DNA from: Escherichia coli
GTDB lineage: Bacteria; Pseudomonadota; Gammaproteobacteria; Enterobacterales; Enterobacteriaceae
Reading direction: 5' to 3' (one strand)
Length of the DNA stretch: 3,207 bases
Assembly: GCF_003334305.1 (NCBI RefSeq)
Contig: NZ_QOWS01000053.1
The position numbers and the translations under genes were made by a program. Position 1 is the stretch's first letter; each line of letters starts with the position of its first letter. Positions 1-3,207 of the stretch are shown piece by piece. Under the pieces are notes generated by a model that saw only the letters and a list, made by a program, of their open reading frames with translations, had not been told where the DNA came from and searched no databases.

Positions 1-800
1 GGAGCGATCATGCGAAACTCTGGCTGATCTGTGTAAGCGTCCAGTTTGTCTGCAAAGAAGACTATTTCTGGATCATAAAATTCCGGTTGATTCAGCGTCG
101 ACAGAGAGGCTTCTCCCTGCATAATCCGTTGATTAAACGCCAGCCACTGGGCGGTGGGATTAACATGCGAAGGTACTGATTCACGCAACCTTAATATTTC
201 GTCCGGTATATTCTGGCTGAACGTAGCATTTGGTATATATGCATAATTCATGTGGCACATATATTGTAGTGGCATATCTACAGAAGCCAGATTGGTTACG
301 GCCATCTTAATATCGAACAATGTAGAGGATTTGTGAAGGACCACTGTTGGCTGAGCCAGATAATGATGCCCGAACCCCATTACATACTCGTAACGCCCGG
401 TAAGGCGTAACATATCTCCCTCTAATTCCATCCATGCTTCATCCATCGCGGCACAGGCCATTTCACCGTGTAGCAGATGAGTATCTTCCGCAGATGGGCA
501 GCCATTAGCCAGCAAACCTGAATGAAAGGCAAAACAGCCATAGGTCTCTATCACCTCTGTCGCCGGTTTAGGCTGGCGAAACATATTGCACATGGTGAGA
601 CTGTGTCCATCAAATTGCGCATCCCAAATCATCTGCCCCATCCAGGGAAGAATAATTAAATGTCCACGACTGTTTGCAATTTTAAGCCCCTCGACACCAC
701 TGTCATAGCGAAAAGACGTGACAGTAAAATCACTATTTTCCAGCAAGATACGAGGTTTTTCGCCAAAAAGCGCCCGCCACAAATTAATACGCGTACTCAT
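1..800 (-). CDS. deoX: Third operon gene, 5' portion only (266 codons in window, 3' end beyond the left edge); deoX-like protein of unassigned biochemical function, possibly a sugar mutarotase-like enzyme
   Basis: Seen in sequence: translating the minus strand by hand from ATG 800..798 gives an open frame with no stop down to position 3. N-terminus MSTRINLWRALFGEKPRILLENSDFTVTSFRYDSGVEGLKIANSRGHLIILPWMGQMIWDAQFDGH...; the last residues in the window are ...LDAYTDQPEFRMIA. A strong Shine-Dalgarno GAGGAG (813..808) lies 7 nt upstream and overlaps the permease stop codon. This ORF is absent from the supplied ORF track, presumably because it has no stop in the window. The deoX name is from operon position only. 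Confidence 0.7.
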   Translation of the reverse strand, partial: MSTRINLWRALFGEKPRILLENSDFTVTSFRYDSGVEGLKIANSRGHLIILPWMGQMIWDAQFDGHSLTMCNMFRQPKPATEVIETYGCFAFHSGLLANGCPSAEDTHLLHGEMACAAMDEAWMELEGDMLRLTGRYEYVMGFGHHYLAQPTVVLHKSSTLFDIKMAVTNLASVDMPLQYMCHMNYAYIPNATFSQNIPDEILRLRESVPSHVNPTAQWLAFNQRIMQGEASLSTLNQPEFYDPEIVFFADKLDAYTDQPEFRMIA

Positions 801-807
801 AACGGTT

Positions 808-813
808 CTCCTC
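808..813 (-). promoter_or_regulatory. Ribosome-binding site for the third gene (GAGGAG), overlapping the deoP stop codon
   Basis: Seen in sequence: minus-strand 5'-TGAGGAGAACCGTT-ATG-3', where TGA (814..812) is the permease stop. Confidence 0.7.
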
Positions 814-2128
814 AGGACGCTGTGACTTCAGCCAGTGCGGTACGTACTTTGCTTTCACGCCAGAAGTAGACTCCGACATAGACAAAGCAGAGCATAGAAA
901 CCAGGAATGAAAGCTGAAGTGAGTGGAACATATCTGCAATATATCCCTGAATTGCCGGAACCACAGCGGCGCCGACAATAGCCATAACAATGACTGCTCC
1001 TGCCATTTCTGTATGTTCGTTATCAACTGTATCCAGTGTTCCTGCATAGATCGTCGCCCAGCAAGGGCCAAACAAAACACTTACCAGGACGGCGACATAG
1101 ACCGCGCTGAAACTTGGAGCCAGTGCAACATATGCCAGGAACAGCGCCCCTATAACGGAATAGAGAATCAATACTTTTTCCGGATTAAAACGCGTCATAA
1201 GGATGTTGGCTATAAACTTGCCAATAAAGAAGCAGGCAAAGCTATAGACCATGAAGTTTGAAGCATCACGTTCGTTGATATCGCCCAACTCCAGCGCCAG
1301 ACGGATGGTAAATGACCATACTGCGACCTGCATACCCACATAAAGGAATTGAGCCACAATACCACGACGAAAGCGCGAATTTTTAGCCAGATAGCGCAGC
1401 GTATCCATTGCTGACGGGCGTTTATGGTGACTTGTCTGTGCCACTTTACAGGTTGGGAAGCGGGTTAAAAGGAACAACACCATGACCACAACCAGAATCA
1501 TAATCATATACTTATACGGTTCAAGGGTGTTCTCTAACATCAGCACCTTAAAGTTGTGAATTTGCTCGGCGTTCATTCCGGACATCTGCTTCTCAAGGCT
1601 TTCCCCCTCGGAGAAAACCAGATATTTGCCCAATAAAATACCAGACGCAGCACCAATCGGATAAAAGGTCTGGCTGATATTGAGCCGCAATGTGGCATAG
1701 GCTTTTGGACCGATCATTGAACTGTATGTGTTCGCTGCAGTTTCAAGGAAACTCAGGCCAATCGCAATCGCAAAAATAGCTGCAAGGAACATAGTGTAGG
1801 TTGCCATATGCGAGGCAGGGAAAAAAAGTGTACAACCACCAATATACAGCGTCAGGCCAATTAAAATTGCCACCTTATAACTGGTCTTTTTAATCACAAG
1901 GGATGCTGGTATTGCAATTAAAAAATAACCTCCATAAAATGCGCTCTGCACCAATGCTGAAGCAAAGTTACTTAGCGAAAATACACTTTTGAATTGAGTG
2001 ATTAATATGTCATTTAATGCAGCTGCGCATCCCCATAGCGGGAATAAACACGATAACAAAATAAACTGGAACAAGGGAGTCTTATTCAGATATCCATCAG
2101 GCATCTGAATGATGTTTTTATCGTTCAT
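812..2128 (-). CDS. deoP: MFS transporter of the L-fucose permease (FucP) family; putative deoxyribose:H+ permease (438 aa)
   Basis: Seen in sequence: intact 438-aa ORF, stop TGA at 814..812. The protein is hydrophobic throughout with many predicted membrane-spanning segments. Its N-terminal region (LFPLWGCAAALNDILITQFKSVFSLSNFASALVQSAFYGGYF) aligns by eye with my recollection of E. coli FucP (LFFLWAVANNLNDILLPQFQQAFTLTNFQAGLIQSAFYFGYF). Shine-Dalgarno AAGGT (2139..2135) lies 6 nt upstream of the ATG at 2128. It sits 27 bp downstream of the kinase stop on the same strand. Confidence 0.85.
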   Translation of the reverse strand: MNDKNIIQMPDGYLNKTPLFQFILLSCLFPLWGCAAALNDILITQFKSVFSLSNFASALVQSAFYGGYFLIAIPASLVIKKTSYKVAILIGLTLYIGGCTLFFPASHMATYTMFLAAIFAIAIGLSFLETAANTYSSMIGPKAYATLRLNISQTFYPIGAASGILLGKYLVFSEGESLEKQMSGMNAEQIHNFKVLMLENTLEPYKYMIMILVVVMVLFLLTRFPTCKVAQTSHHKRPSAMDTLRYLAKNSRFRRGIVAQFLYVGMQVAVWSFTIRLALELGDINERDASNFMVYSFACFFIGKFIANILMTRFNPEKVLILYSVIGALFLAYVALAPSFSAVYVAVLVSVLFGPCWATIYAGTLDTVDNEHTEMAGAVIVMAIVGAAVVPAIQGYIADMFHSLQLSFLVSMLCFVYVGVYFWRESKVRTALAEVTAS

Positions 2129-2155: not shown

Positions 2156-3076
2156 TTATTCGTTTAAGGTTAAAAATTCATTAAATTGTTCAATACTCGG
2201 ATAAGATGATTGCGTACCTTTCCCTGTGACGCTGAAAGCGGCAAAGAGAGCGGCTTTTTTCAAAGCGGCTTCAACATCACCGCTTTGAACATAATAATGG
2301 GAAAAGCAACCAATAAATGCATCACCAGCGCCACTAGTATCAACAGCATTTACTTTGAATGCAGGAACATGGACTTCCTGATCGCGGGTCATCCATAATG
2401 CGCCTTTTTCGCTCATGGTAACAATAATATTGTTCAGCCCTTTATCAACTAACGAACGCGCAGCCAAACGAATATGATCATAAGTATCAACCGACATACC
2501 TGTTAATATTTCCAGTTCTGTTTCATTCGGGATAAAGAAATCACATTTGCAGGCATAAGACATATCTAACTCACGCAATGCCGGAGCCGGATTTAATAAC
2601 ACTTCAATACCATTTTTCTTACCAAACTCAATCGCGTGGTAAACTGTTTCCAGTTGAACTTCCAGTTGTAAAACGATCAATTTGCATTTTTTCAGATCTT
2701 CTGCAGCTCGATCGATATCTTCCGGGGAAAGAAATTTATTCGCTCCCTTAATTATTAATATACTATTGCTCGAGTTGGCATTAACAAAGATCGGTGCAAC
2801 ACCACTGCTGGTACAGGGGACCTTCTCAACATAAGTGGTATTAATTCCCCATGATTCAAGATTACGAATAGTATTATCCGCAAAAATATCATCACCTACT
2901 TTAGTCAGCATCAGGACTTTTGAATTCAATTTAGCCGCCGCCACCGCTTGATTAGCACCTTTCCCACCACATCCGATTTTGAAGGCAGGTGCTTCCAGAG
3001 TTTCTCCTTCTTTAGGCATCTGATTAGTGTAAGTAATGAGATCCACCATATTGGAACCAATAACTGCAATGTCCAT
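2156..3076 (-). CDS. deoK: Ribokinase/PfkB-family sugar kinase, most likely deoxyribokinase (306 aa from ATG at 3076; the ORF track's 315-aa version starts at 3103)
   Basis: Seen in sequence: intact ORF with stop TAA at 2158..2156. Ribokinase-family motifs are present in the translation: N-terminal MDIAVIGSNMVD, GGKGANQAVAAAKL, NPAP, NETE and the C-terminal DTSGAGDAF signature. The ATG at 3076 has a Shine-Dalgarno AAGAGGT (3089..3083) 7 nt upstream; the ATG at 3103 has none. Substrate (deoxyribose rather than ribose) is inferred only from operon context with a FucP-like permease. Confidence 0.85.
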   Translation of the reverse strand: MDIAVIGSNMVDLITYTNQMPKEGETLEAPAFKIGCGGKGANQAVAAAKLNSKVLMLTKVGDDIFADNTIRNLESWGINTTYVEKVPCTSSGVAPIFVNANSSNSILIIKGANKFLSPEDIDRAAEDLKKCKLIVLQLEVQLETVYHAIEFGKKNGIEVLLNPAPALRELDMSYACKCDFFIPNETELEILTGMSVDTYDHIRLAARSLVDKGLNNIIVTMSEKGALWMTRDQEVHVPAFKVNAVDTSGAGDAFIGCFSHYYVQSGDVEAALKKAALFAAFSVTGKGTQSSYPSIEQFNEFLTLNE

Positions 3077-3082
3077 TTCACT

Positions 3083-3089
3083 ACCTCTT
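3083..3089 (-). promoter_or_regulatory. Ribosome-binding site for the kinase gene (AAGAGGT on the minus strand)
   Basis: Seen in sequence: minus-strand 5'-TAAGAGGTAGTGAA-ATG-3', with GAGG 7 nt before the ATG at 3076. Confidence 0.7.
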
Positions 3090-3207
3090 ATAAACTTTCG
3101 CATAACAATGGTATTTAAATAACATTAGCATGTTACTTTTGCATCATTTGTGACTGAGATCGCGATTAGCACATCAACCCGATGTTTATTTAATAGACTT
3201 CCAGTCT
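3090..3207 (-). promoter_or_regulatory. 5' leader and promoter/operator region of the operon (partial; continues beyond the right edge)
   Basis: Seen in sequence: AT-rich non-coding stretch upstream of the first gene. A candidate extended -10 (TGcTAATGT, minus strand 3130..3122) is present, but I found no convincing -35 hexamer. Exact promoter elements cannot be fixed by eye. Confidence 0.4.
3120..3135. repeat. Perfect 6-bp inverted repeat TAACAT-tagc-ATGTTA; candidate repressor operator
   Basis: Seen in sequence: 3120..3125 TAACAT and 3130..3135 ATGTTA are exact reverse complements separated by 4 bp. The repeat overlaps the candidate -10 element. Confidence 0.35.

Follow-up and report, generated by a model that had tools for sequence, protein, structure and literature searches.

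An inverted repeat in the Escherichia coli deoKPX promoter as the probable junction of two tandem DeoR-type operators

The window analyzed here, a stretch of 3,207 nucleotides from Escherichia coli, belongs to the deoQKPX 2-deoxyribose utilisation island and carries the deoK-deoP-deoX operon on its minus strand (Table 1). It matches E. coli chromosomes at 100% identity and occurs in 1601 of 5426 complete genomes. The wider arrangement is seen at the same locus of strain SK1144 (L001, whose coordinates are those of the window plus 1101), where deoX-deoP-deoK is followed by a 305-bp intergenic region and by a divergent gene of the DeoR family, deoQ. The gene order deoQ <> deoK-deoP-deoX, with orthologous proteins, is that of the Salmonella deoQKPX locus. 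The island is carried by strain Nissle 1917, is absent from K-12 and is a known fitness trait of E. coli (PMC7924626). At its flanks lie a transposase fragment and a pseudogene for the small subunit of acetolactate synthase (L001 212-466 and 5267-5493); about 68 E. coli genomes have two copies of the island, and one copy is located on a plasmid. Within E. coli, the intergenic region, with identity down to about 93%, is more variable than the 5' end of deoK.

Table 1. Coordinates of the genes and of the known or candidate control elements in the window.
Feature	Position	Strand	Remarks
deoX, 5' part, aldose 1-epimerase family	1-800	-	gene exits the window; L001 888-1901, start at window position 800
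deoP, FucP-family permease	812-2128	-	NCBIfam fucP TIGR00885, 324 bits
deoK, deoxyribokinase, ribokinase family (RefSeq rbsK)	2156-3076	-	NCBIfam ribokinase TIGR02152, 369 bits; 95% identical to Salmonella DeoK (L024)
deoK Shine-Dalgarno, GAGG	3084-3087	-	GAGAGG conserved in the promoter alignment
O2, candidate DeoR-type 16-mer, TGTTAtttaaaTACCA in E. coli	3109-3124	-	consensus TGTTA-N6-TATCA; predicted promoter position -9 to +7
Predicted transcription start, +/-2 nt	3115	-	7 nt downstream of TAATGT; leader about 39 nt
Palindrome, read as probable O1/O2 junction	3120-3135		right half-site of O1, 6-nt linker, left half-site of O2; 3134-3121 invariant in 56 promoters; TAACA-N6-TGTTA order conserved only here, about -59 from the ATG
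Candidate extended -10, TGcTAATGT	3122-3130	-	TG at -15/-14, hexamer TAATGT at -12 to -7
O1, candidate DeoR-type 16-mer, TGATGcaaaagTAACA in E. coli	3131-3146	-	consensus TGATA-N6-TAACA; predicted promoter position -31 to -16
CRP-like 22-mer, aatCGCGAtctcagTCACAaat	3146-3167	-	core 3164-3149; centre 3156.5, or -41.5 from the predicted start

The start of deoK is annotated in RefSeq at the ATG at 3076, while the list of open reading frames used a longer frame beginning at the in-frame ATG at 3103, which would add nine codons to DeoK (window 3103-3077, MRKFIRGSE). The downstream ATG is likely the true start, because it has a GAGG 8 nt upstream, while the ATG at 3103 has no Shine-Dalgarno sequence and most of the other genera in the alignment lack it. 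Distances to the ATG given below refer to position 3076.

The intergenic DNA within the window comprises 131 nt with 33.6% G+C and contains, at 3120-3135, a perfect inverted repeat that reads TAACATTAGCATGTTA on the plus strand and TAACATGCTAATGTTA, or TAACAT-GCTA-ATGTTA, on the strand of the operon. Its two 6-nt arms are separated by a 4-nt spacer, lie 44-59 nt upstream of the deoK ATG and can be extended to 9+9 with a single mismatch (3117-3125 and 3130-3138). The sequence-only reading had singled out this TAACAT-N4-ATGTTA element as an operator-like palindrome placed over a candidate extended -10 element, and both the repeat and its overlap with TGcTAATGT (3130-3122, minus strand) were confirmed. 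Its caution that such repeats are not rare by chance was well placed: when the 131-nt intergenic sequence was shuffled 5000 times with its dinucleotides preserved, 26.7% of the shuffles had a perfect inverted repeat of 6+6 nt with 0-10 nt between the arms. The pentamers TAACA and TGTTA at a distance of N6, in either order, appear in 0.09% of 20000 shuffles, a test that was picked after the sequence had been seen. Taken alone, the 6+6 repeat is weak evidence; it is its conservation across genera that speaks against a chance occurrence. A 7-nt direct repeat, ATTAGCA (TGCTAAT on the minus strand), is also present at 3124-3130 and 3165-3171 of the window. It is specific to E. coli and probably a chance occurrence, since its upstream copy is not kept outside this species in the other genera.

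DeoK was used to scan representative genomes, which yielded 80 loci from Citrobacter, Salmonella, Klebsiella/Raoultella, Enterobacter, Edwardsiella, Providencia, Proteus, Pasteurellaceae, one Aeromonas and one Bacillus, and the promoter alignment was made with 56 distinct sequences from Enterobacteriaceae, Edwardsiella, Providencia and Moellerella. The segment AACATG-n-TAATGTT (3134-3121) is invariant in 56/56 of these orthologous promoters, and the outermost arm base, at 3135, is a T in only 71% of them. Upstream of about 3168, beyond a CRP-like site, the sequences drift, with most positions below 0.9 bits. Downstream of this point, the conserved pattern consists of AATCGCGATC-nnnn-GTCACAAA, followed in turn by TGATA-N6-TAACA, TGnTAA, TGTTA-N6-TATCA and TTG. 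This is the pattern that the sequence-only reading had proposed to look for, a repeat kept across genera, with the drift lying upstream of the CRP-like site. A DeoQ-like gene is linked to deoK in nearly all loci. The two genes are directly divergent in Enterobacteriaceae and Edwardsiella, while Providencia, Proteus and Pasteurellaceae have between them a deoC-like gene for deoxyribose-phosphate aldolase (L046 1664-2398, L079 1670-2344). This gene is divergent from deoK, and the control region shared by the two serves deoC-deoQ in one direction and deoK in the other.

The overlap of the palindrome with a putative extended -10 element, TGnTAATGT, is well supported by this alignment. The TG, T-12, A-11 and T-7 are invariant in the 56 promoters, and the sole clearly variable base of the core, 3128 at -13 (A in 51, C in 2, G in 2 and T in 1, and either C or T within E. 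coli), is exactly the 'n' of TGnTAATGT, which supports the candidate. With a start near 3115, the CRP-like site would occupy the class II position, centred at -41.5. With the sequence CGCGA-N6-TCACA, which has two mismatches, this site is the only one in the window that matches TGTGA-N6-TCACA with at most two mismatches, a match that by itself is not significant; in the 56 promoters, TCGCGATC and GTCACAAA are nearly invariant and the middle is variable. A sigma-70 consensus scan of 2900-3207 gave no promoter and no -35/-10 pair, a type of scan that is uninformative for activator-dependent promoters with an extended -10, and the absence of a recognisable -35 fits activator dependence. As an alternative -10, we considered the AT-rich hexamer at 3118-3113, which is TTAAAT in E. 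coli and GATAAT or TATAAT in relatives. It was ranked lower because its A-11 is not conserved and because the CRP-like site would then fall at about -50.5. Two moderately conserved boxes are also found upstream of the CRP-like site, at 3190-3182 and 3176-3172 (minus strand, AAATAAACA and TGATG, about -75 to -57), with the consensus ATAAATAAACA-N6-8-ATGATC in many Enterobacteriaceae. The AAATAAACA and ATGAT boxes were rejected as a further pair of 16-bp operators, as the flanking frames do not fit; they could be an UP-like element, a site for a second factor or a distal half-site.

The half-sites of the palindrome were said to resemble those of the DeoR operator, in the opposite order, and both parts of this statement agree with the K-12 genome. 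The DeoR operators upstream of deoC were verified there as TGTTAGAATTCTAACA and TGTTAGAATACTAACA, 599 bp apart, and contain the same pentamers; they read TGTTA-N6-TAACA, while the element at 3120-3135 reads TAACA-N6-TGTTA and thus lacks the 16-bp DeoR dyad with TGTTA at its 5' end and TAACA at its 3' end. Such a dyad is found in the two frames on either side of it, 3146-3131 and 3124-3109, designated O1 and O2. Judging from the alignment, the palindrome is probably not a binding unit in its own right, and its arms are most likely the inner half-sites of two adjacent 16-bp DeoR-type operators. Two abutting operators of normal layout would explain the opposite order of the pentamers. The claim that the palindrome is an operator is thus upheld in part: it is conserved, lies over the extended -10 and has the DeoR pentamers, but it is probably not bound as a unit by itself, given that the outer half-sites are nearly invariant as well and that the normal layout stands alone elsewhere, namely at the deoQ promoter and in Pasteurellaceae.

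Relative to TGTTA-N6-TAACA, the E. coli sequence has two mismatches in O1 and one in O2. Of 46 enterobacterial loci, 41 have at most one mismatch in the O1 frame, located at -70/-71 from the ATG, and 43 in the O2 frame, located at -48/-49. The start-to-start spacing of O1 and O2 is exactly 22 bp, for a composite site of 38 bp, which would place the two operators on the same face of the DNA, as it corresponds to roughly two helical turns. Across the 46 loci, the density of TGTTA-N6-TAACA with at most one mismatch is 8.1 per kb over the 350 nt upstream of deoK, compared to 0.02 per kb elsewhere, an enrichment of about 400-fold, with fixed positions at -70, at -48 and beside deoQ. For E. coli, three of the nine matches with at most two mismatches in 8.3 kb fall within the 305-bp intergenic region. 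In the window alone, the 16-mer has two matches against 1.86 expected in 3.2 kb, which is not statistically significant.

The four half-sites are mirror-symmetric about a single dyad axis. Their mean information content in the 56 promoters is 1.79 and 1.79 bits per position for O1 and 1.91 and 1.97 for O2, compared to 0.98 and 1.12 for the respective N6 spacers and 1.88 for the linker between O1 and O2. The outer half-sites, TGATA (3146-3142) and TATCA (3113-3109), therefore match the inner ones in conservation, and the N6 segments are the most variable. This conservation of the outer half-sites favors tandem operators, because no element of sigma-70 promoters is invariant at their predicted positions, about -31 to -27 and +3 to +7.

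Outside the aligned promoters, Proteus retains the 22-bp spacing of O1 and O2. Conservation of the TAACA-N6-TGTTA order is limited to the junction at -59, with scattered matches at a similar junction on the deoQ side, and the order was not found in 11 of the 12 Pasteurellaceae, whose deoK promoters have one or two sites of normal layout. Neither layout is present in the two deoK loci, from Aeromonas and Bacillus, with no DeoQ-like gene in the fetched locus. In Providencia and Moellerella, a third 16-mer, TGTGATTTATTTAACA in Providencia, starts 19 bp downstream of the start of O2 (L045-L053 and L056, about -27 from the ATG). Its counterpart in Proteus (L057-L066, about -48) is either TGTCACTATTTTCACA, which is as CRP-like as it is DeoR-like, or TGTAACTATTCTAACA, and in Enterobacteriaceae only a vestige, TGTGATTG, is seen.

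On the other side of the intergenic region, E. coli has a perfect deoQ-proximal match to the operator, TGTTATTTTTATAACA, at L001 4447-4462, which forms an 8+8 palindrome in the normal order. In the stretch around it (L001 4420-4465, outside the window), this perfect site (AATGTTATAAAAATAACATT) lies downstream of a conserved TATAGT -10 of deoQ. It is followed by a weak second site, spaced by 20 bp from the first in Salmonella and Citrobacter; in E. coli, the spacing is 18 bp because of a 2-bp gap in the alignment.

The divergent deoQ gene encodes a regulator with a recognition helix like that of DeoR, in line with the DeoR-family repression that the sequence-only reading had proposed. Its best NCBIfam model is DeoR, at 230 bits and below the cut-off of 244. 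DeoQ and DeoR are 38% identical overall and share the motif HLKDAA..L.VS.MTIRRDL, and all DeoQ-like proteins of the set have in common an N-terminal helix-turn-helix close to that of DeoR. A common half-site and a common dimer geometry would be the economical assumption, because the helix-turn-helix motifs of the two proteins are nearly the same. Salmonella DeoQ recognises palindromic sequences (PMC2222622). In the PDB, no complex of a DeoR-family protein with DNA was found that would give the orientation of the half-sites, the sole solved relative being the effector domain of DeoR (7L6L). The DeoQ frame of a metagenome-assembled genome (L010) has an in-frame stop, LGG*IV, and the tblastn match of DeoQ in Leclercia adecarboxylata (L043) ends at residue 218; these two deoQ genes may be pseudogenes or assembly errors.

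Several other explanations of the palindrome have to be weighed against tandem operators. TAACAT-N4-ATGTTA could itself be the operator, with a single DeoQ or DeoR dimer bound to half-sites oriented opposite to those of the classical DeoR site. It is the most invariant block of the promoter, the N6 spacing of its pentamers equals that of the DeoR operator, its arms are intact in 5/5 E. coli alleles examined, and the inner arms are perfect in E. coli, where the outer half-sites have one or two mismatches. We nevertheless consider this unlikely, because the outer half-sites are equally conserved and symmetric about the same axis, the inverted order is never conserved without flanking frames of normal layout (11 of the 12 Pasteurellaceae lack it), and both the deoQ-proximal site and the K-12 DeoR sites are in the normal order. 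A single helix-turn-helix dimer would also be unlikely to read half-sites in both orientations, and the sixth pair of the arms, T3130/A3125, is not kept in Proteus. The operators O1 and O2 have points against them as well, in that the core's invariance cannot be fully separated from that of the extended -10 and that the tandem sites at the deoQ promoter are not 22 bp apart, but 20 bp (Salmonella and Citrobacter) or 18 bp (E. coli).

If the block were conserved solely as an extended -10 and a CRP site, its palindromy would be coincidental and there would be no repressor site. The TG, TA and T of TGnTAATGT do lie within the palindrome, the 'n' is the sole variable base of the core, and generic 6+6 inverted repeats turn up in 27% of shuffles. 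However, AACA (3134-3131), TGATA (3146-3142) and TATCATT (3113-3107) are invariant or nearly so and match no sigma-70 element, while further copies of the 16-mer are found at the deoQ promoter and, in distant lineages, beside DeoQ/DeoR-like genes, about 400-fold enriched over flanking DNA, which makes a promoter with no repressor site highly improbable. It is scarcely credible that the repeat acts as a hairpin in a transcript, as part of a leader or an attenuator. The 9-bp AU-rich stem has a predicted energy of -7.7 kcal/mol, but its z-score is only -1.43, with 19 of 200 shuffles folding at least as well, and no Rfam match was obtained at E-values up to 1. With a start near 3115, the repeat would not be transcribed in the deoK direction, and the variation among promoters is not compensatory, as the spacer alone varies.

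Taken together, conservation, symmetry and genomic context suggest that the palindrome is probably the centre of a 38-bp composite repressor-binding site, made up of the two DeoR-layout operators O1 and O2, in a deoKPX promoter that would be CRP-dependent. Two dimers of the divergently encoded DeoQ, probably in the form of a tetramer, would bind O1 and O2, and the chromosomal DeoR, with its nearly identical recognition helix, would probably bind the same sites. The bound repressor would cover the promoter from the spacer to +7, including the 6-nt linker between O1 and O2 that would carry the extended -10 (TGnTAA...), and would thereby exclude RNA polymerase. Release of the repressor by an inducer would then allow CRP-cAMP at -41.5 to activate the promoter.

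Compared to the 56 orthologous promoters, E. coli has substitutions at three nearly invariant positions: 3142 A to G (G in 3/56), 3128 A to C (C in 2/56) and 3111 T to C (C in 1/56). Its outer half-sites, TGATG and TACCA, thus deviate where 53/56 and 55/56 of the relatives agree, and the inner pair is the best-preserved element in E. coli because the outer half-sites are weakest there. All five of the E. coli alleles examined carry TACCA; in that of strain E1624, positions 3142, 3128 and 3144 are A, T and G, respectively. No co-variation of these operator substitutions with the helix-turn-helix of DeoQ was seen, the E. coli motif being identical to those of Citrobacter and Salmonella. It is conceivable, if rather doubtful, that the composite operator is weakened in E. 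coli and effectively reduced to the central inverted pair. Were this true, the control of deoxyribose catabolism would be leakier or rewired, with more dependence on DeoR or on the tetramer, in the roughly 30% of E. coli genomes with the island.

The closest known system is the deoQ-deoKPX locus of Salmonella, with the same gene order and with orthologous proteins (DeoK 95% and DeoQ 83.5% identical to those of S. enterica subsp. diarizonae). The Salmonella deoK promoter (L024) aligns base for base with that of E. coli from the CRP-like site to the ATG. By contrast, the E. coli allele departs from it at 3142, 3128 and 3111, and the spacing between the deoQ-proximal sites is shorter in E. coli. 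Christensen et al. in 2003 (J Bacteriol) reportedly found that Salmonella DeoQ binds 'tandem operator sites' in the promoter regions of both deoQ and deoK and has the higher affinity for those at deoK. The same study is reported to describe deoKPX as repressed by DeoQ and DeoR and subject to catabolite repression, with divergent promoters. These reported features (divergent promoters, repression, catabolite repression and tandem sites) fit the anatomy of the E. coli locus.

A second point of comparison is provided by the O1/O2 operators of the K-12 deoCABD system (TGTTAGAA.TTCTAACA), which have the same terminal pentamers at N6 within a 16-bp dyad, and by their repressor DeoR, of which DeoQ is the closest paralogue, with nearly the same helix-turn-helix. 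The K-12 operators overlap the -10 regions of deoP1 and deoP2, and the deoK-promoter site similarly overlaps the predicted -10 region. They differ in that the deoK sites have not kept their inner triplets, GAA/TTC (N6 at 0.6-1.6 bits), that one of the two half-sites is degenerate in each deoK operator (TGATA or TATCA), and that the deoK pair abuts at 22 bp, compared to 599 bp in K-12, with the pentamers of the reported palindrome in the inverse order. The promoter would also resemble class II CRP promoters with an extended -10 in the centre of the CRP-like site at -41.5 from the predicted start, the lack of a recognisable -35 and the TGn motif, and differs from them in its left half-site, which is CGCGA in E. 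coli deoK rather than TGTGA.

The palindrome is thus real and probably functional, and represents the central part of a type of control region that has been characterised before, not a new element. The orthologous Salmonella promoter was reportedly dissected in 2003. The finding in E. coli adds little to this, because of that earlier dissection and because the island is a known fitness trait; only the interpretation as a junction and the E. coli substitutions at three otherwise nearly invariant positions are mildly new. What results is a cleaner annotation, in which the palindrome would be the junction of two tandem DeoR-type operators over an extended -10, with a CRP-like site at -41.5, slightly degenerate in E. 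coli. The locus also serves as a cautionary example that the most eye-catching inverted repeat of a control region is not necessarily the unit to which a protein binds.
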